The translations under genes were made by a program, and so were the position numbers. The notes below the pieces were generated by a model. That model did not search any database, was not told where the DNA came from, and saw only the letters and a list, made by a program, of their open reading frames with translations. DNA of 45,019 bases, the filler included, from Jimgerdemannia flammicorona (lineage: Eukaryota): the NCBI GenBank assembly GCA_003990765.1. It is 2 parts of 2 records of this genome, joined end to end, with 100 filler letters (N's around TTAATTAATTAA, not from the genome) between each part and the next. Parts side by side here need not be neighbours in the genome. Positions count along the whole stretch, not along the records: positions 22,561 to 45,019 come from RBNJ01001277.1; 1 more part is not named here. One strand, 5' to 3'. Shown here piece by piece: positions 2,141 to 45,019 of the stretch (its first letter is position 1; each line of letters begins with the position of its first letter).

Positions 2141-5100
2141 ATAATCACTGAGCATTATGTAAGATTGTATTCATATTGTTAAATTCTCAAATAAAGATTA
2201 TAATATATACTATGATAATATATAAGATATAGGAAGCTTTATGTAATCATCACATATAAGTATCTATGTTGAATCTGTTCTACTTGAAATCTCAGCTATT
2301 CAATCTTTGAATAATGCCTAAGAAGAGTATCTATGAATATGCTAGTCATATCAATAATCTGATGAATCAAGTGAATTCCATTAGTATATCTGCAGATTAC
2401 ATTTAGAATGAAGACAAGATTATGCTACTCACAAGAGAACTTCCAGATGTATATAATATCATAGTGGCAGTCATATATAAGGAAATATATCAAGAAAATA
2501 GTGTCAATGATAATAAAGAAGCCTTCAATAGGTCCTATAGATGTGGTGCTAAATAAGGTCAAAAGTATAGGCAATACAGCCAAAGTGAACAAATCCAAAC
2601 TTAAGCTCAATAATGTGATAATCAGTCTAGCTAATCAACTAAGTATGATGGTTACTGTGAATACTGTGGCAAGTATAGACACAGGAAGTGGTATTACTAT
2701 AGTTGGGAAAATGATAAGAAGAGCAGTGAAAATAAGCATAGAAAAAGCCAGTATTGGCAATGTGAGAATGGTGGAAAGAACTATTGAGGGAAGCTTAGCA
2801 ATATAAATACTATTGAAACTGATGAAAGTAGTAATATATTTTTTATGCAAGCTGCCAGTTCTACCACCAGTACCAGTTCTGCTAGTACAAGATTAATATC
2901 TATGAAATCTGGTCAGCAGGATGACAATTTTGGACTAAAAAGTCCATCTAAATTTACTGCCAATTCCACAAGCACCCATTCTGCCATTACAAGATCTACT
3001 GTCAAAACCACCAACTTATCATCTATGAATCCCAGTCAGCAAAACACTTTTGGGCTGAAGAAAAGTAGTAATATCAATTTTGCCAACAACTATATATTCT
3101 CAACATATATATCTGATAAATATACTATCAACATAGCTGATGTTAAAGATGTCTGGCTCTTGGATTCTGGAGCTATACAATATATGATGCCATACAGAGA
3201 ATAGTTCTCTATATATGAGCCTTTCAAGTTCTCTGTATCTATTAAACCAGGAGGAAATAATATCATCTATACTCAAGAAAAGAAAAATGTAGAGATACAT
3301 CTCTATAGTAATATCATTGAGTCTACTGCTACTTTTGTAGATGTATTTATACTCTAGATATAGAAAAGAACCTCTTCTCAATTGGTAAATGATGACTTGC
3401 AGCAATAAGAAGATCTATATACATTTAAATAGTACTACAGTATATGATTTACATGACAATGAGCTGATGATAGTCTTGAAATTTGGATGCCAAATTGCAT
3501 AAAACCCTCTGCTTATATGACAACTATATCCAATATATAGCATCAAAGCTTTAGAAATATTGATAAGATAAGCCTCAAATATATGAGAAAAAGCAGCTCA
3601 GTAAGTGGATTGCTGGCATATATACATCCAGAGAATAGCTTTTACAAGATATGTGTGGAAAATAAAGCTTTCTAGTTATCATTCAAAGAATGATTGAAGT
3701 GCATCTTGGAGATCCTTGATCTCATCTATACTGATATATACAGTCTAATGCATACTCTATTATATTCCAGTAAGAGATATTTTCTGATATTTGGCAATAA
3801 TCATACATGTAAGATATATATATATTTCCTATCAGTAAAGAGCAAAGCCTTGGAGAAATTCAAAGAATTCAAATCAATTGCCAAGAATAAAACAGGATGT
3901 AGAATATATACTATATGCTTAGATAATATATACAAATACATTAATAATGCATTCAGGCAATTCTTGATGAAACACAGTATAAGCCATCAGATGATGGTTT
4001 CTTATTCATCTCAGCAAAACAGTGTGGTCAAGTGATTTAACTATATGGCTATAGAAATAATATATATGATAATTAATATAGCTAGACTAGGATATTCCTA
4101 TTGGACTGAAGCTATCAACATGGTGGTATACATCTGCAACAGATGTGTATCTCGATCATTAAGCAAGGATTCAGACAACAATAAGTATTCCAGAGATGAT
4201 GATCTTATCTCTAAAGAATTATAAAGTAGATCTAAGCTGAATATATCATATCTACAGATCTTTGATTGTAATACAAATATTCTCAACAAAAGCAATATCA
4301 ATCAGTATAAATTTGAGCCAAAGGCAGTCAAGTATATATATCTAGGATATAGTGGGAAATTGTATAGACTCTGAAATTCCATACAAGATGTATGGTGATT
4401 TCATATAACATATAATTCAATGAAAAAGGCTAGAGATATATATGGAAATACTTAAGAAGACCTCTATATCTATATTCTCACAAGCAAAAAAACCAGTACT
4501 ACCAACATCTCTGATAATTCCAGTGGTTAATTAAAACTATTTTCAACTGCTATACATACCTGAGCTAGAGTTGTCTGAGCTAAGGATTACTGAGATCAAA
4601 GATAATGACAGTGAATCCTCCAATAATGAGAGATCCTCTATTAAGGGTAAGGGCAAGCAAAACCCAAAGTGTAAGCTCAGAAATGAGACATATTCAGAAT
4701 TAGGAAGTTATTGGAGTATGCCAGTGAGTTCTAGATAGCAGCAACATCAAGACCATATGAGCTATACCAAAGTATATGAATGCACATGTATTGTGACATC
4801 TTCTGGCAAGCCAAGAATATACAACAAGGCTATGCAATGTCTAGATAAAAGGAAATAGCAATAAGTGATAAATGAGGGATATGATTCACTCATTGAAAAT
4901 GATATATAAGATCTAGTACCTCTTCTACCAAACCATCAAGCAATTGGATCCAAGTGGGAGTATAGGATAAAACATAATACTGATGACAATGTAGAGTGGT
5001 ATAAAACTCATTTCATTATCAAGAGTTATTTGTAATATTATGGCATAGACTACGATAAGACATTTTTATCTATATTCAAGCTCACTTCACTTAGAATACT

Positions 5101-16625: not shown

Positions 16626-19600
16626 ATGAATAGTATAACTAAAATATTTTCTACGAATTTGAATGGGTTGAGGGGTGCAGTAGGGTGAAGAAATATCTTT
16701 GGCTGGCTAAAGGGACTGGATGCAGATCTTTTCTTACTACAGGATGTATGGTATGAGGTAGATATGGATTTACAGGACTGGACTAGATAATGGGGTGGGG
16801 CAGCCTGTGGACTGGGCAGGTGGGTATTTTGGTTCGAAAGGGGATAGGAGACATTGAGGACATTGGACATTGGGAGAATAGGCTGGTGTTAGGTATATGG
16901 AAGAGGCCTGGGTGGAACCTCTTGACTGTTGGGTCATATTATTGCCCAGCTGAGAGGGGGGAATACATCAATTGGATTAGAGGCTTGAAAGAGGCTTGTG
17001 TTATGGATGAGGCAGAGATTGATTGACTGGGGGGTGATTTTAACATGATACATGATAGTGGGATGAACAGGACTGATGGTGGGAGAGAAATGGGGGGCTG
17101 ACGTGGCTGGTTGGATGATTGATTGGAGATTGAGAGGTTGAGCTCCTTAGTTGACTCAGGGTTACAGTTTTGGGTAGAGAGCTGAATTTATACTCACTGG
17201 GTGGCATGGCTGAGCTCAAGGATTAACTGGGTGTTGATGGCAGATTGCTGAAGAGTAAATGTCTGGGACATGCTGGAAGTGGTCTGGTGCCTGTGGTCAG
17301 ATCACTGGGAGCTGATAGGGAGTGGGAGATTTGGGAGAAGTGGGGATGGGCCTGGACATTGGCAACTGAATGCTACTCTGTTGGAGGATGGTCCTTTGTT
17401 GACAGGCTGGGAGGTAGAGATTACTGAGAAGATTGGTAGGTGTCAGATGCAGGAACTAGTAATTGAGGATTACTGGCAGTGGCTGAAATCGGGTGCTCAG
17501 AGATACTGGGGGGCGGCAGAGAAAGGAAGGAGTGCTCAGAGGTGGCAGTGAGTGCAATGGGTCTCGCAGAGATTGGCAGTACTTCTAGAAAGGTAGGTGG
17601 GGTCACAGGAGGATGAGGGAGCAGCCAATTGGCAAATTGGGCAGATATAAAGGAAGTAGATGAGCTAATGGAAGTGCTACAAATGGAGGAGAAGGTGAAG
17701 CTGAAGGGAATGGTGGTAAGATTGCAGTGACAGGGGTTGGAGGAGAGGGAGAGGTCCACTAGATTCCTATCATTGGCACTTCAAGCTCAGCTAACCAGAC
17801 AGCAGTGGGATGGAATTTTGGGTGAGGATGGAGAAATGGTGGCAGAGACTCCAATGATTTTGGAATTGCTGAGGACTCACTGGGGAAATTTGTGGAGTGA
17901 TAAGGAGGGGGGTGAGAATGCTCTGAATATGGAATGTTAGCTGGAGGAGTGGTATCTGGACTCAGCCTTGGGCCTGGGATTATTGGGAGACCCAGTGCAG
18001 AGAGAGGAGGTATGTAAGGTCTTGGCTTCAATAAGTAAGGGGATTGCTCCTAGGGAGGATGGGCTACCCTGGGATTTCTGGAAGAAGATGGCTGGAGTGG
18101 AGGTGGTACTAGTAGAGATGATGGCAATGTATGATGTGGTACTTTGATCAGGTACTTGGATTGCAGGCCAGTACCTAGGGTGGTCTCTTTGCTCTATAAA
18201 GATAAGGGGAGACATGAGGATTTGAACAACTGGAGATCAATCATGCTCCTTGATATGAACTGCAAGCTGGTGACAAAAATCTTATTAAATAGGCTGCAGG
18301 GGATCGCTTAGCAGGTACTGGGAGTAGAGCAGCGGGGATTTGTAGGTGGTTGGTTAATCTGAGATGGAACTGCCTGAGTCTATAGAGTGATAGAAGGTGC
18401 TCAGGTGGCTGGGGTTGTGGCCAATTACTGTTTCTAGATCAGGAGAAGGCATATGACAGAGTGAGGAGAGTCTGGCTAGAGGGAGTGCTGAAATGTATAG
18501 GAGTTCCCCCAGGGTTCAGGAGGTCATTCATAGGTTTATTGGAGAACAGTCAAGCAGTATTAGTAGTGAATAGACACAGGGGAGAGACTTTTCCACTAGG
18601 TCATAGGGTGGCACAAGGGGATCCTTTGTTGCTCATCCTTTATGCCCTCTCCTTAGAGCCCCTCTTGGATTGGATCCAGTGTAGAATTGGAGGTCTAGAC
18701 ATTGTAGGGATTAACTGGAAGGTTGTGGCTTTTGTGGATGATATGCTAGTTGGCTTGGGTTCATTAGCAGATGTTGAGGAATTACAGAGTAAAGTGGAAT
18801 GGTATGAGAGAGGCTTAGATACTTGACTTAACTGGTACAAATATGAGACTCTAGTGCTAGGCAGCAGCATAGTTAGTAGTGATGTGATTGGAACAGTAGT
18901 GCCAGTGAGAGAACTGGTCTGGTACTTGGGGATATACTTTTTAGTATATGGGTCTCTTCTCCCTTGTACTTGGTGGAAACAGCAGTTACTAGTATGGGGG
19001 AATGTTCTCTTGAGGTGGGGTGGTTGGCATATTTCCTTGACAGGAAGGGTGATGGTGCTGAATGTGTATTGGATACCAAAGCTGTGGTATATGGGATATT
19101 ATTTGGACTTTTTGGTTTGGGTAGTCAGATAACTTTTGAAGTTGACAAGGTCATGGATTTGGGCCAGATAGCGAAGTCAGATAGGCTGAGAGGTTCTAAC
19201 TCTGCCTGTTGACAGAGGTAGGCTGCTTGGTGGACTTTACCAAGCACCTTCATTGTCTAAGAGCATGGTGGCTGAAGAGGATAAGCAAGTTGAGGGGCTG
19301 GGAGTGGGTGCCACTCATACAGAGAGTGTGGGAAGTCCAGTATTCCCCTTATGGAGTGATGGTGACCTGCTTGCATTAGTGGCCCTGGACAGGAGCAGGA
19401 GGATGTGTTATAAAGGCTTTTGGTGGGGTGTGGTGGACAGTGTAAGGAGAATTGGACTTTGGTGGCAGGGAGATAAGGGGAAGGAGGACTAGGGACCTCA
19501 GATATAGAGATGGGACAGACTACTGCTGGGAGGTATCTTGGTGGAGGACTTTCAGCTTAGTGATAGAATGGAATATATGTAGGGACTCAGGGGGAACTTG

Positions 19601-20220
19601 TGGTCTGAAGTGTGGCAGAGGGTGGGGATTGGTGAGGAGTGCAACTGGAATAATATTTGGCCTTAGAGTAAGCAGGTGCTTCAGTGGCTTCCCCCCAAGT
19701 TCTGGGTGGTATTGTGGAGGTTCCTGAAGCAGAATGTGATACTGAACTATTGGTTAGAGCACTCAGTGGCAGATGGCACATTTGAATATGAGGAATGCAT
19801 ATATGTTGACCAAGAGGGAGGAGTGATACAATCACCTGAACATTGGCTAGGAGAGTGTTAAATTTTGGGGGAGTTTTGGAACTGCATTGTGAACAGATTA
19901 GGATTGTGGCCCCTGGTGGGGGAGGAAGGGGGGAGATGGGGGGACCTCTGCCAAAGGTTAGTGGGTGAGATTGGAGATGAATGGCTGACCTTAGGATGGG
20001 CTCTGGCAATTTGGGTGGGGCTGACCAGACATTGGCTTCATGTATTTGAGAGGGACCAGTGGGTTGTGGTTGAGGCTAAGGTAGCATATTGGGAATAGTT
20101 AGCACTTAACATTTTGAATGATTGGTAGAGAGAGTAGGGACCAGGTGGGGGGGGGTAGCAGAATCTGGTGAATTGTATTTGTAAGAAGAGTGGAGAGAGG
20201 GTTTGGGTGGTGGGTGGAGG
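16626..20220 (+). pseudogene. LINE ORF2 (APE endonuclease, RT, C-terminal Cys/His motif), degenerate; end approximate
   Basis: APE: KIFSTNLNGLR, LFLLQD, LGGDFN, SRINWVL, SDH. RT: APREDGLP, NWRSIMLL, QRGFV, LDQEKAYDRV, RVAQGDPL, AFVDD, YLGI, SLTGRVMVLN. C-terminal ECIYV...SPEHWLGEC. Confidence 0.93.
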
Positions 20221-20360
20221 GGTTATACTCCAGAGGGGAGAGACTGAGAGTAGGGAGGGGGATTGGAGGGGTATCAGCTGAATAGGGAAGGTATAATTGT
20301 ATTATTATTAATAGATTGAGTGGTAATAAAGGGAAGTCTGAGTGACTATAAAAAAAAAAA

Positions 20361-21335
20361 GATACTTCAGCAGTATGGACCTTTTTGCAGGATTCCATGA
20401 GATCCCCATGGACCCAAAAGACATTCAGAAGGCAGCCTTCCTTGCTTTAGGAAAACTGTTTCAATACCTCCAAATATCCTTTAAACTTTGCAATATACCT
20501 CCCACCTTCCAGAGAATGATGAATTCAGTCTACACTCCTCTGATCTACCACTGTCTGATTGTATATATGGATGATTCCAACATCTATTCAGCAAATTTCG
20601 AAGAATACCTACACTACCTAGAAGAATTCTTCAAGCTCACCTGCAAGAACCACCTGAGACTCAATGCCAAGAAATACTACTTTGGGAAACAGAAACTTGA
20701 ATTCCTTAGATTTGTAGTTTTGAAAGAAGGAATCCATGCAGACCCAAAGAAAACTGAGAAGATCAACAATTGGTCAGTACCCAAGACCCTAATGAAAACT
20801 CTATCATTCCTAATGCTAGTATTCTACTACAGAAGATTCATCAAGGACTTCATTCAAATCACTGCCCCAATCTGGATCCTTCTCAAGAAAGGAGTACCTT
20901 ACAGATGGACAGAGTTACAAGAGAAAGCTTTCAAAGAACTCAAGAACTGCATGACCACAGCACTAATCCTCATCTACTCCAATCTACAGAAACTATTCAT
21001 CTTATATACAGATGCTTCCAAAGATGACCTGGGAGCAGTTTTAGCCCTAGAAGGACCTGATTAATAACACTATATAATAGCTTTTGCAAGCTGAACTACT
21101 AATTAGCAGCAGATGAATTATGGCAGCACCAAACTGGAATGTCTTGCAGTTATATGGGCAGTCACTCTGTTCAAGTATTACCTCATCTGAAAAAGGTTCA
21201 CTCTGATCACAAACCATATAGCTCTTAAATGGCTATTTAACCACAAGGAAGCTACCAGAATCTTCGTCTACTGGATCTTTATCCTCCAGGATTACAAAAT
21301 CACCATTATCCACAAAGCAGAGAAAGCTCACAAGT
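20361..21335 (+). pseudogene. Gypsy RT (C-terminal part) and RNase H
   Basis: RYFSSMDLFAGFHEIPM, FQRMMN, VYMDD; RNase H FILYTDAS, NYGSTKLECLAVIWAV, LITNHIALKWL. Confidence 0.93.
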
Positions 21336-21399
21336 ACTTTCCCACCAGCCCCAATGAACTAGAAAAAGGGTGTCTCAAGGAATTACACTCTAAAGGAAG

Positions 21400-22400
21400 C
21401 TCCTCAGACCATCAAGGTACAAGAAGATCTTATCCAAAAAGAACATCAGAAAGCTCACTAGGGACAGGCAAATATAGAAGAGAAGCTACGAACAATACAC
21501 CAACATTGGCCCAATCTCAGAATACAAATCTGAGATATACTTAGGAAATGTGACACCTATCAGAAGTACCAAGAAAGGAAGAATTACCAAGCACCATCCA
21601 ACCAATTATACTACTAGACAATATCCTTCAGAGATGGGAAATAGATATAATTAGACCCCTACCAGTTATACCAAGAAGAAACAAGTATATCCTTGTATTT
21701 GTGGAATATCTGACTAAGTAGCCTGAGGCTTTCCCAATAGAAATCACAGATGCCTTAACCATTGTAGGTCTTCTCCATGGACTCACTCTCAGATATAGAC
21801 CCCCAGAAGAACTCATCTCTAACTGAGGCATAGAATTCATCAATAACATAATCACAAGTTATGCTCAAATTCACAAGATCCACCTCAAACAGACTACATC
21901 ATACTACCCCCAGACCAATGGCATGACAGAAAGAATGAACCAGATCATCAAGAAAGAACTTGCCCAAGTCAATGCTATCAACTGAGATCTCTGCTTACCT
22001 GAGATTCTATGGGAAATTCAGAACAACCCTGCTGCCTCCACCAAACAAAAGCCATTTGAAATGATGTTTGCCAAGAAGACCAGAACTGCTGACTATGAGA
22101 ATCTTGGAGATCTCCTCAAGAAGGCAAAATATTTATGTAATCAGGCCCAAGTTCAGATTATCAAACTCAAGAAAGACAAAAAAAGTACTATGACCAGAAG
22201 CAGAAAGATCAGGAGATCAAGATTGGAGATCAAATATTAGTTTGGAGAAGCAAGATTGAAATGAATTTTGCTACCAAACTAGAGCCCAAATGGGAAGGAT
22301 CTTATCTTATACACAATATCAGAGAAACTAATATCTATTTAAGAAGCATAGATGGGCAAATCCTGAAGACACCAGTATACATCAATTGCCTCAAGATATA
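21400..22400 (+). pseudogene. Gypsy integrase (HHCC remnant, core, GPY/F region)
   Basis: EHQKAH...KCDTYQK, WEIDIIRPLP, YILVFVEYLTK, YYPQTNGMTERMN, KLEPKWEGSY. Confidence 0.9.
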
Positions 22401-22560: not shown

Positions 22561-23060
22561 TTTTTTGAGGAACCTTTATTCTCTCTGCTTCATTCTCTCA
22601 CTCTTTATTTCTACAGATTATCTTCTATATACCTTGCTACTTGAAAAGACTATCTGTACTCCTTACTTAAGATATATTATATATATTCTCTATTATTATT
22701 TTTTTGAGAGATCTTTACTCTCTCCACTTTATTCTCTCACTCTCTTCACTTTATTCTCTCACTCTCTCTGCTTCATTCCCTCACTTTTCACACTTTATTC
22801 CTTCATTCTCTATTTTTTACAGCTTATCTTCTATATATCTCACTATTTAAAAAGACTGTCTGTACTCTATTCTAATTACTTTTATATATCTTACTATTTG
22901 AAAAGACCATCTATATTCCTTGCTTAAGATATATCATATACATTCTCCAATATGCCTTACTGCTAATATACCTTACTACTTGTAAAGACCATCATACTCC
23001 TTGCTTAAAGTATATTATATATATATATTCTCTAATATATCTTACTGCTTGAAAAAGTCA
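22561..23060. repeat. Degenerate AT-rich repeats
   Basis: About four copies of TATA(C/T)CTT.CTA(C/T)TTGAAAAGAC.ATCT.TA.TCCTT.CTTAAG plus CTTTATTCTCTC-type units. Confidence 0.65.
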
Positions 23061-27039: not shown

Positions 27040-28863
27040 TTACACCTTAACCAACCTCACGCCACCGACCTGCCTCTCGATCCCGTCCGCGGCGGTCATA
27101 GTCCACGGCGAAATATCCAACCCCCTCGCTACGCCCCGCGTGTCGCGCTGGAGATGCCCGCCAAAGTGCCTATGTAAGTTCGGGTCGGACTTTGAAGTTC
27201 GGAGCTGCGCGGCGGGGTCGACGGGGTGTAAGGTGAGGCCGTCCGTCACGGGTGCGGTTGCGGATGCGGGATGGCTCTGCTTAAGCAGCTTCGAGACCTG
27301 CGCCTGGTACTTATGCACGGTTGGCACGACATTCTTGACAAATCCGCCGACGCTCTCCATGGCCTTCTTTGCGGGCTCGAGGAAATTGAAGGCGTGGAAG
27401 ACGTGTACCATGTCCTCGTAGCACTCGTGCTGGACGTGGGTAGTCTCCGATTCAGCGAGGCGACGGGCCAGCTGGTTGATCTCATCGCACAGGTTCTCCG
27501 AGTCGCCGTGCTGGATCAAGAGCGGGGGCAGGTTCTCGAACGAGGTCGCGAAGAGGGGAGAGACGTACGGATGCTTTGCTAGCTGCGGGTACTGATCGCC
27601 CAGGTAGAACCTTGTCGGGTGAAGAGGAGCGTCCTCTTGAGGGCGTGGCGGGAGATAGTCGAAGAGGATGTTCGTGTCCCAGCTCGGTGAACTGAAGGTC
27701 AGGTCGACCCACGGCTGGAAACAAAAATTTGGCGAACGATTAAACATGAGTTCCCAAATTCGAATATGCCAACATAAATGAGCGCAAATTGCACATCGAC
27801 GAACACATACCGAAAACAGCACGCCACCGCCCGGTGTCTCCATATCATGGTCCCTCAGGTAAAATAAAAGGGCTAGAGCCAACCCGCCGCCCGCCGAATC
27901 GCCCATCACCACTACGTCCTTGGGATTGATGGCCAAACCATCGGGATCCGTAAGATACAGGAAGGCGTAGACGGCGTCAAGTAGCGCGCCAGGGAAAGGA
28001 GTTTCGGGAGAGAGGCGGTAATTTAAGGCTGTGATTTATTATCATTTATTTTATTTTATTTGGGAGGGAGGGAGGGGGTGATGAAATAAAATAGTGAGAA
28101 TGGCACTGGAGAGTGTGTAAGAGGGAACCAGATGATACCAGTAAATATACTCACCAAAAACCCTCTGGCCGGTAACCTTGCTGACACGATACGTGATATC
28201 TCTGTGAGTCTTTGCGCTCATCAGGTAATACGCGCCGCCATGCAAATATAGGACGACCTTCTCCCTCCCCTGCCTCTTGCCCTTAATCCTTCCACCCAAA
28301 TCGAGCGCGCTTCTCTCGGCTGCGTCCGACGCCCTGGCCTTGGTCTCTGCGTTCCACCTCTCCCACACCTTCCTTTCCGCTACCCACTCGCCGGTAAGCT
28401 CTCTAGATCCGTCCTCCTGCGCATCATGCACCGCCAGCAGGCCCTTGAGCTTGTGCGAACTGACGCGGAAAGATGTCTCGGTGATGACGGCGCTCCAAGG
28501 GATCATGTTGGGCATGAAAACGAGGGCGCGTGCCATGGCGAGGTCGCCGAGGTGGGTGTGGGAGGTGATCTGTTGGAAAACTGAGACGAACATGGCGAGG
28601 CGGATGTCCCACGAGGGCTTCTTGGGCTTGGAGAAGGTGTGGGTGAGGAAGTCGGTAGCCAGCGAGCGAACGTTATGCGTGAGCAGACTGACGGATTTGA
28701 GCAGAAGCTCAGTGGCCGTGTTCCTCTGCACCAGCGCCACCGTCGTGATCGGTGCCGGCGTAGGCAATGGTTTGCAGCAGCCCTCGATAGCGCACGTTGA
28801 CCAACGGTCGGAGGGGACAGAGGTGGGCCGCGCGTGGTCGATGGTGGGTTGGAGGGTGAGCAT
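27040..28863 (-). CDS. Alpha/beta-hydrolase, hormone-sensitive-lipase (GDXG) family esterase/lipase, ~533 aa, 3 exons: 28863-28155, 28028-27811, 27714-27040
   Basis: Motifs YLHGGAY, ALNYRLSPETPFPGALLDA, GDSAGGGL, FSPWVDL, GDSENL and MVHVF. Introns GTGAGT..CAG (28154-28029) and GTATGT..CAG (27810-27715) give a 1602-nt open frame. Confidence 0.93.
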
Positions 28864-33436: not shown

Positions 33437-33496
33437 ATGCCTTACCATTTCAACAATAGTACACGATATATGGATCCCACAGAGTAAGTCTCTCTA

Positions 33497-33528
<32 letters not shown>

Positions 33529-34045
33529 CGTTACACTGACTTATAAGATAACCTAACGGCGAATTCAGCGGTCGATGCTTCTTAGACGACTTGCCTGCGG
33601 AATCTCTTGTAGAATTGCAAAAGTTGCAAACCTCTTTGCAACATCAGAAACCCGAGTCTACCGACGCATTGAACTATAATCCTGACAAATGTGAGTCGAT
33701 CCCATCATCGCAAATGATCGTCACCACTTTCGTTGCTCGGTGTTGAAAGCATGGACCAACCCTCCATGCGTGCAATAATTTGCAGCACTTTTGCATGTCG
33801 GTCTCGGTTTTGACTTCATTCAAGTCACTTTCGGGGAAATGCCTCCAAGTCACCATCGCAAGTTCAACGAACCAAGGGCCACCAGTGCCTGCCAGCCATG
33901 CCGAGACGCTCATAGGAAATGCAACGGTTCGCGGCCCCGTTGCGCGAAGCATGGTCGAGAGTTCACTGATGAGCAGCGTCAACACCATGGTTTTCCAGGA
34001 ATGCCCGCTACGCCAGCTAGTAGTGATGAGATCGAGCCTAGATAA
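33437..34045 (+). CDS. Mini Zn2Cys6-family protein 1 (~142 aa; exons 33437-33483, 33569-33690, 33786-34045); cluster degenerate (4 Cys)
   Basis: Introns GTAAGT..CTAAC..CAG and GTGAGT..CAG splice in frame: MPYHF...DPTDGRCFLDDLPAESLVELQKL...FDFIQVTF...ACQPCRDAHRKCNGSRPRCAKHGREFT. Confidence 0.75.
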
Positions 34046-35112
34046 CGGGGTAAATGACAATGTCACTTGCGGATGATAAGGGTACGTTCAACTTCAACCT
34101 TTTCCCGTTAATACAGTGAAGTGTGATACGATCATCCACCATCTTTGATCGAGCGCTGAACTCTCATTCACTTCCATCAAAGATCCTCAATATGTGTCCA
34201 GCAGCGGCCCAAGAGGTGGCTCGCCTTCCCCAATTACGTTATTTCATTCTCTCGCCGATTAACGTCGTTCAAATGACATCTTCGAGATAATGGTTATGGC
34301 AATTATGCGTGCGATGAATCAAGACTGCAGCCCACATCATTTAGGGCAATGCATTAATTATGATATGACAAGACTAAGCACCATGCAACCGTCAACATTT
34401 AGGATAGACCAATTAATCGCACAACAAAGCATTCTAAAAAAATAAAAATAAAAATAGAAACCACAGACTTCTCGACCTCTCTGAATCAGCATGACCGCTA
34501 TATCATTAAAGAAAACTTCACAAGGTCGCAGTCAATCTACCAAAGCAAGTGTTATATTACTCAGCAAAGGGCGCCGAATCTTTAATGCTTTGTTGAGGGC
34601 ACCGCGACCTCGGGACATCAAAACCAATGGGGCCGAAAGTTAGCACATGAAATGTCGTAGTTGCTCGTCGGAACGCCGTAGGGAGCAACCCGCACAGGGG
34701 CAGGGTAGTCACGCGGCATACCGTCGCATGGATGGGTCTCGAGGTTGGATTTAGCCCCAAATTTGGGATCCGATAGAGGTTGGAGAATGTGGCGTGTTAT
34801 AATTATATATATATATCAATTTATTTTATGAAATTTATCTTATTTCATACCAACCAGCAGATCTTCGATCTTCTATTAAAAAAGGAGATTCGTCTAAAAT
34901 TATAAGCTTGTCGTCCAACCTTTGACCGGTGGTTCCTTCCTCTCTCACCGACTGCACATGCCCATTGTAAGTATTGTAAGTTGTGCTCCACACGTCGTTG
35001 TCCCAGTCACGCGACGACCTGGATCCTTTATCTCGGGATGCGTCATCCGATTTTACCCGTCCTGTCGGAAACCGCGAATCGATCACGTGGCAAATCGATC
35101 CGAGTAAACCAA

Positions 35113-35160
<48 letters not shown>

Positions 35161-35189
35161 CGTTAACTTTCTTACCGACTTATCTGCAG

Positions 35190-35443
35190 AATGCCTCAAA
35201 AATGGGGAATGCCTCAAAATATTACAGAAAAAACGCGACCAACAGCCGGTTCCGTCATGTGCAGACTCCCATCAACGCGGGAAAGCAAACCCTCCAGTCG
35301 CTGGCCTTTGGCTTGAACACGCAATCACGATGATGATGGTTCCCAGCAATCAAAACCTGCATGACATGTAAACAGACCCATAAGGAGTGCAATGGTTGCA
35401 ACCTGCCTGCACAGATGGGTCGGTTAATGATGTCCAAATTTAA
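35190..35443 (+). pseudogene. Zn2Cys6 pseudogene 2 (fragment; boundaries approximate)
   Basis: QSR**WFPAIKTCMTCKQTHKECNG (first Cys at 35358), then a frameshift to LQPACT. The stops CGA TGA TGA TGG look like decayed Arg codons. Confidence 0.7.
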
Positions 35444-35814
35444 TGTTTCTGGGCCTGTTGAGCAGGCTTAATTGGAGCCTTAGTATTTTCAATCTCTCCC
35501 AGTGCCCCAGTGATGCAGTTGAAAATTTTATGTGCCATTTCGAATAATCCGTTTCCAACATAATCATCAGAACCCATCACACAATGCGCTCAGGTATACA
35601 CCGTATTTTCCAAAAAATCCGAAAAATGCATGAAGGGTTTGGGGAAGCGGATGGCCATGGTAATTACCGATACCGAGAAATGCACGATGAGTGGAATATT
35701 GTTACGTAGTAAAGACTATGGGAATATATTAACTTATCACCTTATTCAGATTTCCTCGACTACCATTTCATCGGCCGAAAGACAGAAGACCCGGGACATA
35801 CTCGGCTGTTGGGC

Positions 35815-35852
<38 letters not shown>

Positions 35853-37264
35853 ACAGATTAGATCACTCCTTAGACTACAAAAACACATTCACTCGGCATG
35901 AAATAATACAAAAATAATTAGAACAAAGTTGCCACGAACTTTGTAAAGTTAATCGACACCTCAACAATTTTATCGCCCAGATATGAGAAGCTTCCCCCTT
36001 AAGCTTATGTCTATTTAAATTATCTGGCATCATATCCGTTGATTGATTGCCATTCTTCTTTTTCTTATTTTCCACGAAAGCGGAAATCATCGAGGTTTGA
36101 ACATCATGAAGCTTAATTCGTGGATTACAAATGATCCTATTGTGCTACCCATGCAACGGGTCCAATGAGGAATGACACATACAAGTCGATGCCATGATTC
36201 GTCTTAATTGTAATATTATTTGCAATCCTTGTTCTTGTGATATTGACGAGATAAAGGTAACTCAGTCAAAATGCACAGAACAAAAAACTATGCGACTTTA
36301 GTATACCCGCCCTCAGACCATCAAAAATACACACATTAGGTTACAAAACCGAATGAATTCATGCGCAACATTCCAAAACCACCGAACAACAAAAATCTAC
36401 TTTTTGGTAATACTGTCAGAGGAATGCACCAATAAGCAATAGCGGTGCCGAATATATATATATGTATATACGATATATACGAAAATAGCCAATGACGGAA
36501 ATTACACTGGACCTACGCACAAAAGGGTTCTAATAAATTCAGAGATAAATCAAGCAGATTGACCGAGTGAAATGGTATTGAAATGATACAAACGGCATGT
36601 ACCCATTATAAAAATGCCTGGGAAGAAGCACGCTGAATTCATGTGTATGCGACGAAAATACGTAAAGGGATGAAAGTGTAAAGACGAAATTTCTCACAGA
36701 CGGAAACCGCATTAGTTTCCTTGTCATCCATAAAACCTAGATTTTCATCGCGCCACAAAAGGCGATGTCACGGCGCGTGTGGGCTATATAGTCTGTATTT
36801 GAAAACTCAGTAAACGTGGGAACGTTGCTTTGTCTTCGATCGGCAGTGCTTCGACTGTTGTCTATTTATGGTTAGTATTTTTCGCGTTGATCACAAAACG
36901 GCAGAGGGGTTTTTATCGTGGTGCCAACCCAAAATATTGCACTAGTCACAAAATAGCGGGCTGTCATGCAAAGTTAAAATGCTTCGGTTTTTTAGGAGGC
37001 CGCATGAACGCTTTCGAAACCAATTACTCTAGATAATAACATCCCATCGACTCGTGCATATTTCTTCCCGCGAGATTCAATATTTCTCTTTATCTACAAT
37101 ACATATACTGTATCAAACTTGGTCATAACGATGGATACTAGGCAGTATTCCCAGGTCAATCCTGGCATTCTCACACATTCTGTCTACCGGCAACATCCAG
37201 TCGCAATAAGCAACTTTCACTAGGCATTTTGATGTCTTCCCCCACACTAATTCTTCAATTCCAG

Positions 37265-37614
37265 AAGGTAGGAGCTCCTAGCATTCCAAGAAGCCGGGAA
37301 TGACGGCAAAACCACCCCCCACCCAAACGTCTCCCCATCCCGAAAAATAATACAATGCTCTATTCGGAGCAGATGACACTCGCACGAACTCCAGGCCCTT
37401 CAGGGGTACCTGCCGACAGTACTCACCACGGACGTCCAAAAGGGAGAACGTCGCCAGCAACCGCCAGCATCCGGGGTTTACTGAACTCTCCTCGATCCCG
37501 ACAAATAATGCTAGGCGTGTAGAGAGGCACGCAGAGGATGTGAGAGAAGCTACTCCTTGTAAGAGGTGCGTGAAAGCTGGAATACCAAACGGATGCTACT
37601 ACAGAGTGCCATAG
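37265..37614 (+). pseudogene. Zn2Cys6 pseudogene 3 (5' boundary approximate)
   Basis: 37509-37614 reads C*ACREARRGCER, then a 1-nt frameshift, then ATPCKRCVKAGIPNGCYYRVP*. All six Cys are present (Cx2Cx6Cx5Cx2Cx8C). An upstream CTAAT..CCAG acceptor-like site lies at ~37264. Confidence 0.75.
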
Positions 37615-38898
37615 TTTAGAACACCCCAACACGCTCTTGGGCGTGGATATTACGAAAGGGGAAATTTTGTGGTAACTCATGCTGTTTTGGTCATTTGGTT
37701 CGCATTGAGTGAGGTGAGATGGTAACGTGTGTGCCTTTATTCTCTATGTAAATTGGCCACAGTAAGAAGGATCGGCAGAGGTGTGTACTCAATATACATC
37801 AAAGATATGTTTGTATACAATCGTATCTGTTCGACACGCGCCTTCATGATCCAAAATATATTGAGGGAGACCCACAGACAGGTGAGTCATATACAAGGCG
37901 TTTTGAGGTCTACGCGCCGAACGCTCCGTATTCCGCTTTTAGAAGGCTTTTGTCGATCCTCCCGGTGCATGCGAGGGCGCGACCATTTGCGGAATGGTCT
38001 GTTTCCACGTAGAATGCAACATATACAGTAACTTCCCGTCGTATATGGCTACCCCATAATCAGACATACCATCATCAGGCCGCGCGCACTTGAAACAAGA
38101 ATTTGAAGCTGGATTCGGCGTATCAACCAAATGCGACCGTACCGTTCCCGTCTGAGTACGAAAACAAGATTCACATCCGCCATTCTAAATTTCAATGCGC
38201 TTTTTTTTTTTTTTTTTTCGGAGCTTCAATGTGTGGCGTTTCCGTTATCCTTTTTTTTGGTCAGATAATCTACTCTGCGGCCGTAGCCAACACTTCAGCA
38301 TGACAGCTTTGTAAATGTACGCTCATTGTTTAGGTGTTTGTGCAGACATAACTGACAGCAGCAAAGGATAAGTCCAAAAAAACGTTTGGGGCTCTCTTGC
38401 GCACTACATAATACGTCATCTGGAGCTTCACCGTTTTGCGTCCTCTCATCTCTAGAACCCCTTTCCTGTTTTGTAACGTTCCCGGTCGCGCGATGTCATA
38501 AAAGGACCTGTCTCTCCTACTTTTGGTTATATATAAAAAAAAAAACGTGGCAAAGTCAAAGTCAAATTTCAATCCCCGAAGGTCATGAGCTGTACTGCGC
38601 GTATGCTGGCCAGCTACCGTTAAACATCGACGGCAAACGTAACATTAATATGCATTGCGGTTATCTTTTCTCGAAAGTTGCAGCGCTCGCATAACAGATA
38701 GCGGCTCCGATTGCCAATTAAGCCATCTCTCCGTTGCGGGTCTAAAATTGGCTGCGAGCAATAGGTAACGCTGCCGTGGTTATCGCCTCGATGCATAGGA
38801 AGAAGTTCCAGGAGCAGTTCGACAGATCAGAGAGCTTGGGAAATCCTCCTTGTAAATGATCTCCCAATATTAAATTATCTCGACAGTTTATCAAAGCG

Positions 38899-39846
38899 AT
38901 GAATATTGACACAGAGTAAGTTTCGTAGAGCTCTTTCAAGGACCTCACCAATACGTTTTGGTGTTGATTAATTTTTTTACTCCCATCCTTAAAAAAAAAA
39001 AAAAAAAAATTAGATATCCGCATCAAAAGTTTTTAGACGGCTTGCAAGATAATTTTATGGACGAAGTACTGAAAATCCATAATGACCAAGCGCACTACTC
39101 GGACACGCCGAACGATATTCACCAACAGCCACCTAATGCGGCGCCATCTCAGCATGCAGCGTCGCAACACGCGCCGGGTCCAGCAACTTCACGTAAACAA
39201 CCTGCCGATGGCATCGGGGGTTCGCTTGCGTCCAGCCTCCCCATTCCGGCATCTAGCGAGCCTTCCAAGCTTCAAATAGTCCCAGAAACCGGTCGGGGTT
39301 CCGAGGCTGAACAGTCACTGAAAAGGCAGACAGTCCCAAGGATTCGCGAAGCATGTCTACCATGTCAGAAAGCACACAGAAAATGTGACGGCATGTTGCC
39401 TTGCAAAGAATGCAATAAAAAAGGTAAAAACTGCCGCTACAAAAACGGTAAACCGAATCCCCTCTCCGGACAGCCCTTGCCACCAGCTTCGGTCAACGAA
39501 GGCGATGCAATCCAATTATTCATCCCCCAGCCATTGTCAAACGTCGGGATAGACGAAGAGGTTTATGATCAGCCCGCAGGTGATCTCGTCGGTTCCGATT
39601 ACGGCGCAATCGAGACGAAGCCATTCCGTGATCTTGGCCAACTTTTCCGTAAGGTCCTTCGCAAACGTATTTTACGGAAAATCCTCGCTGGCCCCCGTCA
39701 ACACGCTCAACACCAAGAGGAGACGCGAGTTGGTGACAACGGCAACACCAGCAAACAAGGTGACGAAGGGTCGTCGCGCAGCAAGCAGGGCAGGATCAGG
39801 AGCATCGTCGGGAGGTTTCTTTTTCGAAGGTCGGTTTTTTTTTTTT

Positions 39847-39886
<40 letters not shown>

Positions 39887-39908
39887 GATGTCTGGATTGC
39901 AAAATTGA
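38899..39908 (+). CDS. Zn2Cys6 protein 4 (exons 38899-38915 and 39014-39908; possible extra intron at 39830-39886), ~285-303 aa
   Basis: MNIDTE|YPHQKFLDGLQDNFMDEVLKIH after a GTAAGT..TAG intron; intact ACLPCQKAHRKCDGMLPCKECNKKGKNCRY. Confidence 0.85.
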
Positions 39909-40238
39909 AACTCGATCCTTTTCTGATTTGACGGCATTCTCTTTTCGGCATGTGTTGCAGCGGGAGGCCATCGGCCCGACCGAAAAGGTCAGGTTTGCAG
40001 TAAGCTTCTGACCATATTTCTCGATTTATTGGTCCTACCTGCACACGGTGGTGCGGCACAGGACATCCATAACACATATAAATACATTTACACATGTTTA
40101 CACATATTAACACGTTTACCCGTGCCTTAAAATTTTTCCAGCCCATGTGTTATTTTATCTCTCTCACAACTTATTGGTGAGTGTATATTGTTTATACTAT
40201 TCTAGCTGCTTCCTTTCAATTTATAAATATGGTTAGCA

Positions 40239-40501
40239 TTAAAAAACCTGATATTTGGATTAGTAAATTATTACCATTGTTGTCAGTTGTGTGTAGCTTG
40301 TGACTTGACGGCGGAGCGGCTTGCGGCTTGCGGCTTGCGGCTTGCGGCTTGCGGCTTGCGGCTTTCTATTGTGCTTGTGCGGCTTGTAGCTTGAGTTTGC
40401 GGCTTACTCTCTGATGAAATTTATTAAATCTGATTTTATTTGTCTATCATTTATATATTTAATATTATTGATATATATCTTTTAGGTATCAGGTTTTTTA
40501 A
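40239..40501. mobile_element. MITE-like element (~263 bp) with 15-bp terminal inverted repeats and a central (GCGGCTT)7 tract
   Basis: TTAAAAAACCTGATA (40239-40253) and TATCAGGTTTTTTAA (40487-40501) are perfect inverted repeats; heptamer tract at 40316-40364. Confidence 0.6.
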
Positions 40502-41130
40502 ATGATGGGCGCGTACGCGTTAACCAATTCGGGTTTTGGACGCGCCCAACCTTTTGTCGTAGTGGTTAGGAGCAAACCTCCTGTTGATAATAACAAAATT
40601 TAATTGTTAAAATCACAGCAATATACCCTTGCACTCTTCGGGCAACTATTCCTAATTCTAACTGTTGTTATCCAAGTTTAGAAAAATTGTACAATTATAA
40701 AAAATTGGTCGCACACCCGTATCCTCAGAACCTCTCCGCAATCCTCAATCAAAATTGGAAGGTATATACTAGTATCCGTAGTATACCGCCACACCATCAA
40801 CCACACCGCACCACGCATTACGCGTTACGCGAAGCTTTCGGAGACATTTTCAACGATGCTAACGTCCTTTCCAACATTTGTACTGCATTGCAAAGGCGGG
40901 CCCGTAATGTGTTTCATAAACACGCGTCCGTGTATTTGCAACGCAGGGTCAAGCAACGCCCCCTGCATAGACCGTCCTATTTCGGTCAGACTGGTAGTGG
41001 CGGTATGTGGCGGGAAGGTGGCGCAGAGCATTCGGAGGTGAAATTGGAAATTTTTAAGCACGGGGATATAATCGCCTAACAAAGAGATGGCAAAGCCTAT
41101 ATAAATCTCCTCAGTCGATTGTCTAGTTTA

Positions 41131-41684
41131 ATGGCTTCCGTGTCCCGTACCATTAATATGGCTATTGAAGACGAAGACATTTATATGTTATTCGAAGGCG
41201 ACGACATAACGCTGTGAGTTTCCCTGGTTGAGATTTTTTTATGAATACACAAGGGTAAAACACTAACTATATCCTCTCATCAATTAAAAAATAAAAAAGC
41301 CAAGAGAGTTTTTTGGAAACCCTGCCAGATGACTTTCTGGCAGGTATCCAAAATATCTATAACAGCTCGCAAGTACGCCCCAACCCCATGTCTACACCCG
41401 CGGTTATGGTCGCCCCTGTCCAGCAAGGGAGTTTAAGCGTATTCCATATCGAACGTCGGGATACCGCTTCCACCAGCCCCGTTTCAAATCCAGGACCTCG
41501 GACGCCCACCTTGGACATAGTCTTCGTCCATTATGAAAGGAGATCCCGCACCAAAAAACGGAAAAGATCTAGCGCAAATGTGGTCAAGGCTTGTGAAGGG
41601 TGTCGCAAGTCAAAGAGGAGATGCGACGGACAACAAGGTTGTCGCCAGTGCGTGAAGAGCGGGACCATCTGTATATATAGTTAG
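41131..41684 (+). CDS. Mini Zn2Cys6 protein 5 (~155 aa; exons 41131-41213 and 41300-41684)
   Basis: TATA box TATATAAAT at ~41098; intron GTGAGT..CACTAAC..AAG; ...DDITL|QESFLETLPDDFLAGIQNIY...LDIVFVHY...ACEGCRKSKRRCDGQQGCRQCVKSGTICIYS*. Confidence 0.85.
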
Positions 41685-42423
41685 ATTCTTTCCCATAGAC
41701 GCTCGGGATTATGCAAACATTTCTTTTTATGTATTTATTAGAAAATTTTAACGGCAGTGGGATATAGGATTTTATTATATAAGCATGTACATATATGCCA
41801 ACTATGCCAACTTATGCTATAAACATGACAAATTATGCCAATTTTGTCAATAATAACTCATGACGACAAAAGAAATAAATTCGAGATCCTATACCCGATG
41901 AATCACGATCGGAATGCTATAATGAACACAAAGTAAAACGGTGTTTCGCGCGGGTAGTCGTGCCTAATATTTTGTTGCAGCGGATGGTCAATTGGTCACT
42001 TGGAAGCGTACTATCGAGTTTTATTGTGAAAAGAGACACCGCATAGACCAGTCACCACCGCAGCCCCATAGCTGACATCACCGGCGTCATCTAGAGATCT
42101 AGACTCTTACTAGCATTACAGATAAAATCATAGTTTGATCCTCATCGTCAAGGCTTCAGAGTATAAAGTTGAACTTGTGATACTTCCTACAAATGACAAC
42201 GTCTTCATGCATATGGATAGAATATATAGAATATACACCGAACGGTTCCGTCTCCGTGCTCGCCATATTTTCTTGTCTTCGACTTCTCTTATTTTTACCG
42301 TCATTTACCCTGTTGCTGTTCCAAATACGTCTTTCCCATCATTCACCCCTCAGGGAACCCGGTAGTCGGAGTCCTTTCCGACGGGTGTGGCTTAACTAGG
42401 GTGTTCAACGTCCTAAACAGGAT

Positions 42424-42476
42424 GTCACGTACATGTCACGTGCACGTCACGTCCGTGTCACGTATCATGTGTCACC
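42424..42476. promoter_or_regulatory. Cluster of GTCACGT / CACGTG motifs
   Basis: GTCACGTACATGTCACGTGCACGTCACGTCCGTGTCACGTATCATGTGTCAC contains four GTCACGT copies at 11-bp spacing. Confidence 0.45.
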
Positions 42477-43113
42477 TCGAAAGCCATTGAGTCAGTAAAT
42501 TAGAATTACACTTGGCATATCGAAATCTCAAGCTAAACCTTTAGCACGCCCTCCTCTACTTACCCATTCTCCTTTTATTTCCTTTTGCCTCTGGAGATAG
42601 AAGGACCTTTCATAATTCTGTTACTTGCATATTTTAGAAATATTTAGATATGTGGAGTAAAAGACAAGGGGTCAGATTGGAAAGTACAAGAGATAAAGTA
42701 TAGTGGAATAAAAGAGAACCCAAGAACGAGAGAGAAATATAAATAGATTTTTCAGGAATTGCAAACTTGGAGCGGGAGCCGATGTGCGCAGCGAATGGTT
42801 AGTATAAGGAGGCGGAACCCGATTGGGGTTGTTACATGGTGTAAGAAAGGATTTTTCGTTTCATCATGTTATCTTTTACCCAACGACATTTCTCCGCAGC
42901 AAACCCGAGCGGCATGACATTCCATGGAGAAAGTTCGGTTTTCTAGCGACGAGAAATAGGGGGTCATTTTGTGGATATAAACCCAAACGAACGCTTATAA
43001 AACCGAGACCGGCTACTTGGAGCAGCACTCCTATTGTTTATGCTACAAACACATCCCAAAGAACAATTTGAATACACACATACACTGACCATAAGATCGT
43101 AAGCTCCGACGTT

Positions 43114-43398
43114 ATGTCTGATTTTTTGGCAAGCTTGAAGGACGACGACTTAAAGGAGATCTACGCTAATATGCCCGGCGCGAAGAACTCAACTTCAGCC
43201 ACCAAATATTCCAAGCACTCCTGCCCGTATACCTTTATTGCGTATGGGGGGGTGCTCAAAAAGAAATTAAAGCTGATCGGTGACAAAGCCTCCACTGCCT
43301 GTCCGAAGTGTCGTGTTGGAAAGAGGCGGTGTGATGGAAAGCGACGTACTTGTGCTAAATACAATCCCTTAAGGTCACCAAATTCGCAATATCGTTGA
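43114..43398 (+). CDS. Mini Zn2Cys6-family protein 6 (94 aa, intronless, cluster truncated after Cys4); possibly a pseudogene
   Basis: MSDFLASLKDDDLKEIY...YTFIAY...TACPKCRVGKRRCDGKRRTCAKY; TATAAAA at ~42996. Confidence 0.7.
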   Translation: MSDFLASLKDDDLKEIYANMPGAKNSTSATKYSKHSCPYTFIAYGGVLKKKLKLIGDKASTACPKCRVGKRRCDGKRRTCAKYNPLRSPNSQYR

Positions 43399-44392: not shown

Positions 44393-44810
44393 TGGGAATA
44401 GTGCAAGTTCCAAACCGTGCTGCCTTGAGATTGTTGGTTCTTGGTTCCGCTTTCTATGAGTATTTCCCAAACCGCATTCCTCGGTTGGAATTCCGAATGA
44501 CGGATTGCGGATGACGGATGTCGGATCCTTGTTTTATGAGCCGTGCTGCCTTCAAATCGCGGGTTCTTGGTTCCGCTTTCTTGGCTCATTTTCACAAAAA
44601 TGTAAGAGTATTTCCCAAACCGCGTTTCCCTGTTGGAATTCCGGATGACGGATTCTGGGAATAGCGCAAACTTCAAACCGCGCTGCCTTCAGATTGGGTT
44701 CTTGGCTTTGCTTTCCGGGTTCGTTCTCACCAAAATGTCGAACATTTCCCAAACCACGTTCTTCGGTTGAATTCCGGATGAAATATTGCGGATGACGGAT
44801 GACGGATTCC
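44393..44810. repeat. Diverged tandem repeat (three ~130-140 bp units; ~263 bp higher-order period), possibly transposon subterminal repeats
   Basis: Recurring blocks CCG(T/C)GCTGCCTT, GGTTCTTGG, ATTTCCCAAACC, GAATTCCG(G/A)ATGA and CGGATGACGG; TGGGAATAG.GCAA at 44393 and 44656. Confidence 0.8.
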
Positions 44811-45019
44811 TGTTTTAGTTCCGCATCTTGGGCCTTGCGGATGTTTTTTTTTCATCTTTTTCGGTTCCGCATTCTGCGCCCCTTGCGGGATCTCCTTTTG
44901 GATGCTCTCCACCGTCGCTTTTGTTAGAGATGCGCATCTTTTTTTGGTTCCGCATGTGTGACTTGTGATTCAGTGACATATGCCACTTGAGCAAACCAGT
45001 TTTTTGGGGGCGGGGGGGG

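Follow-up and report, generated by a model that had tools for sequence, protein, structure and literature searches.

A probable tandem array of short, diverged Zn2Cys6 genes and gene relics in Jimgerdemannia flammicorona

Zinc-cluster (Zn2Cys6) factors form the largest family of fungal regulators and, to our knowledge, nearly all of those studied are long, dimerising proteins from Dikarya. Here we describe a row of six short Zn2Cys6 units in Jimgerdemannia flammicorona, a root-associated fungus of the Endogonales. The units occupy positions 33437 to 43398 of a 45,019-nucleotide stretch, referred to as the window, which joins two parts of assembly GCA_003990765.1 with 100 filler letters between them; positions 22,561 to 45,019 come from record RBNJ01001277.1. 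We have high confidence that these units are true paralogues, six anciently diverged members of a family of short Zn2Cys6 genes arranged head to tail; joined with the mechanism proposed below, about which we have more doubt than confidence, the account as a whole is somewhat more probable than not. Of the six, copies 4 and 5 are intact, whereas copies 1 and 6 are open but retain only four cysteines (Cys), and copies 2 and 3 are decayed. The array is thus a lineage-restricted, old tandem family, half of which was already annotated and in which the domain itself is an ordinary Zn2Cys6 cluster; it departs from the textbook plan in three tested respects, namely the position of the cluster, the adjacent coil and the middle-homology region.

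Cysteine motifs and gene models

The 45-kb window was searched on both strands for the pattern TGY-N6-TGY-N18-TGY, with 100 shuffles as the control. Nine matches were found, compared with 2.38 +/- 1.56 in the shuffles (at least nine in 0/100), and eight of the nine lie on the + strand between 33890 and 43332. The Cx2Cx6C first halves are at 33890, 35358, 37509, 39354, 41592 and 43300, all on the + strand, and the second cluster halves of copy 4 (39402) and copy 5 (41640) are also among the matches. The remaining match (28995) is interrupted in frame by TGA and was attributed to chance.

In-frame translation shows all six Cys, as CX2CX6CX5CX2CX6C, in copies 4 and 5. In copies 1 and 6 the reading is CX2CX6CX6C, after which come AKH or AKY but no more Cys, and this shared CX6-CAK may reflect either common descent or parallel decay. 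Copy 2 reads CX2CX6CX2C, and copy 3 has six Cys codons that are readable only through a stop and a frameshift. The Zn_clus spacing CX2CX6CX5-12CX2CX6-9C is present as such in copies 4 and 5, and not in copies 1, 2 and 6. Against the gathering cut-off of 21 bits for Pfam Zn_clus (PF00172, Gal4 type), copies 1, 4 and 5 score 23.1, 30.4 and 33.0 bits, and copy 6 lies under it with 14.8; none of the four open reading frame (ORF) fragments from copies 2 and 3 gives a match. The predicted proteins have 142 (copy 1), 279 (copy 4), 146 or 159 (copy 5) and 94 (copy 6) amino acids (aa), with the first Cys at residue 92 of 142, 120 of 279, 117 of 152 (second-strain model) and 63 of 94, respectively, so that in all four the cluster is central or C-terminal and does not have the canonical N-terminal placement.

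An earlier reading of the window, made from the sequence alone, had reported six Cx2Cx6C motifs on the + strand within 10 kb, belonging to two intact, two four-Cys and two pseudogene copies that encode short proteins with a central or C-terminal cluster and no middle-homology domain. The search against shuffles, in-frame translation, the sizes of 94–279 aa and the ORF scans reported below bear out each of these points. The features of the six copies are as follows, with "N motif" denoting the N-terminal motif described in the next section.

33437-34388, + strand: copy 1 gene (P0003, BC938DRAFT_472051; 142 aa), from the protein mapped to the window
33437-33483, 33570-33690 and 33786-34045, + strand: copy 1 coding exons, with the stop at 34043-34045
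34081-34181, + strand: extra intron of copy 1, 3' of the stop, from a spliced contig
33576-33611, + strand: copy 1 N motif, CFLDDLPAESLV
33890-33943, + strand: copy 1 four-Cys cluster, CQPCRDAHRKCNGSRPRC (Pfam 23.1 bits)
35165-35471, + strand: copy 2 relic (N motif scan score 19.8; family hidden Markov model (HMM) E 0.018; no Pfam match)
35165-35200, + strand: copy 2 N motif, NFLTDLSAECLK
35358-35399, + strand: copy 2 half cluster, CMTCKQTHKECNGC, in a frame different from that of its N motif
35331-35336 (TGA TGA) and 35469-35471, + strand: copy 2 stops; no start codon in the cluster frame
37509-37596, + strand: copy 3 pseudogene (TAG at 37512-37514; frame change; no N motif)
38899-39908, + strand: copy 4 gene (P0001, BC938DRAFT_472052; 279 aa; Pfam 30.4 bits)
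38899-38915, 38916-39013 and from 39014, + strand: exon 1, intron and main exon of copy 4, with the stop at 39906-39908
about 39816-39886, + strand: predicted 3' intron of copy 4, nearly all T; the frame stays open across the T run anyway
39027-39062, + strand: copy 4 N motif, KFLDGLQDNFMD
39354-39434, + strand: copy 4 intact six-Cys cluster
41158-41684, + strand: copy 5 gene (P0165, BC938DRAFT_472053; Pfam 33.0 bits)
41158-41213, 41214-41299 and from 41300, + strand: exon 1, intron and exon 2 of copy 5
41307-41342, + strand: copy 5 N motif, SFLETLPDDFLA
41592-41672, + strand: copy 5 intact six-Cys cluster
43114-43398, + strand: copy 6 open frame, a single exon of 94 aa with its own ATG (no deposited annotation; Pfam 14.8 bits)
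43120-43155, + strand: copy 6 N motif, DFLASLKDDDLK
43300-43353, + strand: copy 6 four-Cys cluster, CPKCRVGKRRCDGKRRTC

Copies 1, 4 and 5 have in common a first intron in phase 2. The exon 1 boundary ACAGA/GTAAGT is identical in copies 1 and 4, which are its two matches in the search; at least two matches, with at most one mismatch, occurred in 11/100 shuffles, and the support from this boundary is modest. Directly upstream of copy 2 is a 42-nucleotide (nt) A run at the site of the intron 1 acceptor in other copies, and the two frames of copy 2 would be reconciled by a phase-1 GT..AG intron at 35259-35346, comparable to the second intron of copy 1. The one-base frame change of copy 3 falls between Cys 3 (37539-37541) and Cys 4 (37558-37560).

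The 3' end of copy 5 differs between frame and models. Its unspliced frame reaches a stop at 41682-41684, three residues past the last Cys, giving 146 aa, and the deposited models of both strains, P0165 with 159 aa among them, contain a 28-nt GT..AG intron (region 41669-41710) that deletes the sixth Cys. This intron is probably a gene-caller artefact; we prefer the unspliced end (...TICIYS) because it keeps the canonical CX6C and because the paralogue P0049, which also stops three residues past its sixth Cys, ends likewise. A 27-nt tandem duplication within exon 1 of copy 5 (41151-41207) produces the acidic repeats MAIEDED and MLFEGDD.

Long pure A/T runs stand in or beside the introns of the array, at 33503-33528 (26 nt), 35117-35158 (42), 35817-35851 (35) and 39835-39884 (50). 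Just before the main exon there is an A-rich run in copies 2, 4 and 5 and a T run in copy 1.

A shared N-terminal motif

The units show no similarity to each other by blastn except in homopolymer A/T runs, and evidence of paralogy must therefore come from the proteins. In five of the six units (copies 1, 2, 4, 5 and 6) the cluster is preceded by an N-terminal motif of 12 residues, FLxxLPxDxL, in every case on the same strand and 180-330 nt away; a six-frame matrix scan of the window found none in copy 3. The motif, as RFLQDLPEDCLP, also occurs in P0020, which is encoded on a different contig. In a leave-one-out comparison whose members were the motifs of copies 1, 4, 5 and 6 and of P0020, all five scored above every one of the 10,986 pre-cluster windows of 145 other zinc-cluster proteins. 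When the five-member matrix was run over the window in six frames, the best window outside the training set was that of copy 2, with a score of 19.8 compared with 14.6 for the next. Because five of the units share this motif, and copies 1, 4 and 5 first introns of phase 2, they are very probably real paralogues.

Alignments of the copy 4 protein P0001 are in keeping with this: residues 10-148 align with copy 5 (E 2e-7), and the cluster plus 25 residues past it align with copy 1 (E 5e-8). An HMM of the four open copies detected no further unit elsewhere among 1,843 six-frame ORFs of the window. Since none precedes copy 1, the array begins with that copy on its 5' side, and on the 3' side it may continue past the window.

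These data outline a common family plan. A tiny acidic exon 1 and a phase-2 intron are followed by the acidic-hydrophobic FLxxLPxDxL motif, predicted to be helical in copy 4, and further 3' by a disordered Ser/Pro-rich linker, a basic patch and a Gal4-type cluster at or near the C-terminus.

Age of the array and its relatives

An exhaustive profile search returned 1926 proteins at E <= 0.001, and relatives were taken from the best 150 of these 1926. On that basis the family appears to be limited to J. flammicorona in the databases searched: beyond the family itself, the best 150 are generic or multi-cluster zinc-cluster proteins, and deeper members are possible under rank 150. The N motif pattern occurs in 4/158 collected proteins, which are P0001, P0002, P0003 and P0020, and an HMM of the pre-cluster region run over 164 proteins recovered only the eight family proteins, with the next E-value at 0.013. 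A word-indexed search with P0001 returned only P0001, and with a nine-row alignment only three proteins, all of them its own rows. J. flammicorona has further short zinc-cluster proteins encoded on contigs other than that of the array, namely P0020 (156 aa), P0031 (117 aa) and P0049 (145 aa). Short predicted proteins with little but a cluster exist in other fungi too, with 41/159 full-cluster matches under 200 aa in a list that is query-biased and includes truncated models; 14 full-cluster proteins in the same query-biased set of 159 have at most 15 residues past the last Cys.

The top non-array rows among the best 150, from Synchytrium, the cryptophyte Hanusia, Boletales and Agaricales, score through three to six clusters in one chain, and such multi-cluster single chains are the intragenic counterpart of the tandem gene array. 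The predicted three- to six-cluster chains P0005-P0012 belong to Synchytrium endobioticum, Hanusia phi, Boletales, Agrocybe, Neolentinus and Russula.

A tree was computed from 49 rows and 57 columns, with an outgroup of 40 of the 94 single-cluster matches, drawn at random. Four of its 46 inner branches are well supported, and monophyly of the six copies is neither shown nor rejected. No two array members are paired. Copy 5 pairs with P0049 (support 99/95) and copy 4 with P0020 (86/84), and both P0049 and P0020 are on other contigs. The lack of DNA similarity between units, together with the pairing with genes outside the array, indicates that the duplications are old and that the family is also dispersed; judged from these sequence comparisons, the array is old and is not expanding.

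This bears on the remaining claims of the sequence-only reading, which had described a hidden, locally expanding family with fast turnover, composed of tandem paralogous short genes in birth-and-death evolution. Tandem paralogous short genes with intact, depleted and broken copies side by side are supported by the N motif and by intron phase, and the same-strand paralogues with pseudogenes beside open copies are features of birth-and-death evolution. The recent births that also belong to such evolution were found neither by blastn between units nor in the tree pairings, and local expansion with fast turnover is not supported, given the missing nucleotide similarity and the pairing of copies 4 and 5 with off-array genes. 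The array is hidden only in part, since copies 1, 4 and 5 are annotated, but copies 2, 3 and 6 are not.

Annotation, second strain and transcripts

Copies 1, 4 and 5 correspond to hypothetical proteins of J. flammicorona in GenBank with the consecutive tags BC938DRAFT_472051, 472052 and 472053. P0001 is 100% identical to copy 4 in the window over residues 7-273, and peptide strings from the deposited models of copies 1 and 5 are present exactly. Copies 2 and 3 are unannotated, as the flanking locus tags run consecutively, and the exact sequence of the 94-aa protein of copy 6 is absent from a collection of 15 billion proteins. The orthologue of copy 5 in a second strain is P0002 (BC936DRAFT_137087), with 149/152 residues identical, and over their alignable parts the second-strain models agree at 149/152, 150/156 and 116/117 residues.

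Contigs of two small public runs, X1 and X2, were compared with the array. A 667-nt contig of X1 matches copy 1 with no mismatches over 624 nt, at 33569-33690, 33786-34080 and 34182-34388, and both gaps have GT..AG borders. The upstream gap corresponds to the intron of the deposited model; the other opens 35 nt past the stop. Since the contig carries the stop and ends at 34388, the transcript of copy 1 is short, spliced and stand-alone, and does not reach copy 2. Run X2 covers copy 1 unspliced, with the first base of the stop codon changed, which adds only four residues; apart from this one change in the stop, X2 differs from copy 1 at none of 257 coding and at 3 of about 350 non-coding bases, too few changes for a test of selection. 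Neither run has cover over copies 4, 5 and 6, which has no bearing on whether these are expressed. Another contig from X1 aligns to 37199-38150 with about 93% identity; it is spliced from 37563 to 37761 (GT..AG), with no change of the TAG listed. A diverged relative of copy 3, at another locus or as an allele, therefore exists and is transcribed.

Domain architecture and predicted structure

No Fungal_trans or Fungal_trans_2 domain (middle homology) was found among all 101 window ORFs of at least 90 aa, 12 array ORFs below that size and five family proteins, and no domain of any kind was found in the array spacers of 1.5-2.2 kb. The 20 residues preceding the cluster are basic (3-9 Lys plus Arg, 0-3 Asp plus Glu). 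In copies 4 and 5 the first 40 residues are hydrophobic and acidic: copy 4 has 9 Asp plus Glu against 2 Lys plus Arg, and copy 5 has 11 against 0.

An AlphaFold model of copy 4 was built from the nine-row alignment and has a mean predicted local distance difference test (pLDDT) value of 57.6. Residues 8-34, which include the N motif, are confidently predicted as helices 8-14 and 20-34, with block means of 79 and 78. The cluster (121-150) has block-mean pLDDT values of 87-90, with helices at 121-125 and 137-142. In the region from 151 to 207 the sole predicted helix has four residues (155-158) and is followed by a long helix at 208-230; elsewhere the chain is predicted to be disordered. Neither the copy 4 model nor the chain ends of copy 5 and P0049 showed a coiled-coil dimer helix shortly past the cluster. 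A single-sequence fold of copy 1 had a mean pLDDT of 40.7 and was uninformative.

Searched against PDB, the family profile has the DNA-binding domain of Pho7 as its best solved relative (E 4.7e-7), followed by Gal4, Put3 and Lac9. Foldseek gave no match to the copy 4 model at E <= 0.001. Among its 28 weak matches every listed row is a Zn2Cys6-cluster protein, with Pho7 the best (E 0.021), and in these weak matches the modelled cluster superimposes on Put3 and Lac9 with a root-mean-square deviation of 0.9-1.0 A over 30-31 columns. The ESM Atlas yielded no usable feature match, with structure rows at TM (template modelling) scores of 0.21-0.24.

Surroundings of the array

The nearest recognisable gene upstream of the array is an alpha/beta-hydrolase ORF at 27043-28035 on the - strand (Abhydrolase_3, E 9e-29). 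Diverged direct repeats of about 125-260 bases, with 69-74% identity, occupy 44393-44817, a short way 3' of copy 6. The spacer that separates copy 4 from copy 5 contains a perfect minisatellite, (GCGGCTT)x7 at 40316-40364, with a CGG every seven bases; an X2 contig "goes back 47" at this point, which suggests another repeat number. Relics of Ty3/gypsy type, with rve, RVT_1 and RNase H matches, are present at 3694-4032 and 18386-21541, and extremes of GC skew occur near them (+0.38 to +0.54 at 15-20 kb; about -0.5 at 1-2 kb). A block of 19% GC is found at 23-25 kb. The genome as a whole measures about 240 Mb, with more than 77% repeats, according to excerpts of PMC10386755.

Proposed mechanism and alternative explanations

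The mechanism that we put forward, tentatively and with more doubt than confidence, is one of small monomeric DNA binders with an N-terminal effector. Intact members would be small nuclear proteins, each binding one CGG-type half site as a monomer, by analogy with Pho7 and AlcR. The N-terminal helix would form the effector module, whether as an acidic motif for activation or as one for binding a partner or for export, and the four-Cys members would be weakened or single-zinc derivatives on their way to loss. We favour monomeric binding because no dimer element was found and because the best PDB match is Pho7. Acidic-hydrophobic stretches act as activation motifs, and the same spacing can also be an export signal.

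Several observations count against this account. The motif windows were picked post hoc, by an FL..L rule and on sequences already seen, and homology outside the cluster is weak beyond the 12 residues of the motif; leave-one-out with the whole pre-cluster region ranked 2/7 members first and placed 5/7 under decoys. Two of the four open copies (1 and 6) are without two Cys and may bind no zinc or DNA, and the confident basic amphipathic helix predicted at 208-230 in copy 4 could mediate dimerisation. The RNA label of runs X1 and X2 is a guess, the comparison is at contig level, and among the open copies contig support is that of copy 1 alone. No relative with the N motif from outside J. flammicorona is among the matches listed, and with relatives seen in one species only, some of the short models could represent DNA in decay that was annotated as genes.

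This last point leads to an explanation that we consider unlikely, though not strongly so, in which the array is mostly dead DNA: the wreck of an old duplication series, with frames shortened by decay and transcripts that are noise or pseudogene products. Copies 2 and 3 are indeed broken, copies 1 and 6 are down two Cys, the copy 1 stop codon is altered in run X2, the diverged relative of copy 3 is transcribed with no TAG change listed, and the family is seen in one species only among the best 150 of 1926 matches. However, the six-Cys spacing is perfect in copies 4 and 5, which also exceed the Pfam cut-off, the second-strain models are intact (149/152 for copy 5), copy 1 is cleanly spliced, and motif, cluster and intron phases have outlasted the complete loss of DNA similarity. 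That persistence of the N motif, in five of six units, also tells against the distinctly unlikely view that the proteins are dominant-negative competitor micro-factors, which would keep full-length factors off their CGG sites or poison the dimers that these form. A pure blocker needs no such motif, and a conserved acidic-hydrophobic motif fits a protein with DNA-binding and effector parts better than a bare competitor. Poisoning of dimers is further opposed by the lack of a coiled coil, and no full-length partner with a matching cluster was identified. Competition would nevertheless agree with the missing middle-homology region and with the end of copy 5 right past its cluster, and cluster-only products arising by intron retention are known in Aspergillus nidulans, as reported in excerpts of PMC8396895.

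The repeat-rich genome (more than 77%, in the same excerpts of PMC10386755), the Gypsy-type relics in the window and the wide differences among the clusters of the copies could point to repeat-recognising adaptors, that is, fast-evolving binders of transposons by analogy with KRAB zinc-finger proteins. We regard this as very improbable: young duplicates are missing, the domain scans recognised no repressor domain, no link between copies and repeats was found, and one zinc cluster reads about three bases, far below a zinc-finger array. It is more improbable still, to the point of being hardly credible, that the units are pieces of a longer whole, either exons of conventional zinc-cluster genes (one or several) or parts of one multi-cluster protein. 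Chains of four to six clusters do exist in other taxa, but the short spliced contig of copy 1 has its stop and ends at 34388, short of copy 2, and there are three separate deposited models with their own starts and stops and spacers of 1.5-2.2 kb without a domain; the contig thus argues against exons of a longer gene.

The boldest form of the proposal, which we think decidedly improbable, would make these proteins "inverted mini-Gal4s" of about 150 residues, a new class with an acidic effector helix at the N-terminus and a monomer-binding cluster at the C-terminus, evolving in tandem by birth and death and including an expressed four-Cys, possibly single-zinc derivative. Such a class may be a diversifying panel of sequence-specific adaptors in a genome of which three-quarters is repeats, and may act on CGG repeats, for example (GCGGCTT)7.

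We thus retain the old family of short, probably paralogous genes with its tentative mechanism. If functional, it would be a natural minimal version of the zinc cluster in an early-diverging mycorrhizal lineage and a further probable case of monomeric DNA reading, and its six-Cys, four-Cys and dead copies, standing side by side, would form a small test set for asking what part of the cluster can be spared. For now, the result is a curated description of an under-annotated locus and not a new principle.

Comparison with known systems

No description of such an array or of such a short zinc-cluster build was found in the literature, in a search that did not include the primary genome paper. Copies 4 and 5 share their Zn2Cys6 spacing with Gal4, Put3, Ppr1, Hap1 and Leu3 (PDB profile E 7e-6 to 8e-4). 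In these classic factors the cluster is N-terminal and is followed, after a linker, by a coiled-coil dimer element and in most cases by a middle-homology region, whereas the array proteins have the inverted order, with the putative effector motif first and the cluster last, in 94-279 aa.

A closer parallel may be the Pho7 domain of Schizosaccharomyces pombe (PDB 6o19, 6e33), in which, as in the array proteins, basic residues precede the cluster and no coiled coil follows. According to excerpts of PMC6265462, Pho7 binds a single CGG site as a monomer, without the coiled coil of Gal4, and AlcR of A. nidulans, cited there, is likewise a zinc-cluster protein with monomeric DNA binding. AlcR (2alc) is also among the weak Foldseek rows for the copy 4 model. 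Unlike the array proteins, however, Pho7 is long, with its cluster deep inside, extensions on both sides and a 14-bp footprint, and AlcR is a full-size regulator with extra helices within and past the cluster.

The Zn2Cys6 paralogues of A. nidulans offer a comparison for the array as a whole. As described in excerpts of PMC8396895, they are a large duplicated family with silent and expressed members, in which tandem duplication is not the main route of expansion and paralogues are dispersed. In contrast, the six array members of J. flammicorona stand in one 10-kb row; against that background a row of six is unusual, but it is not new in kind.

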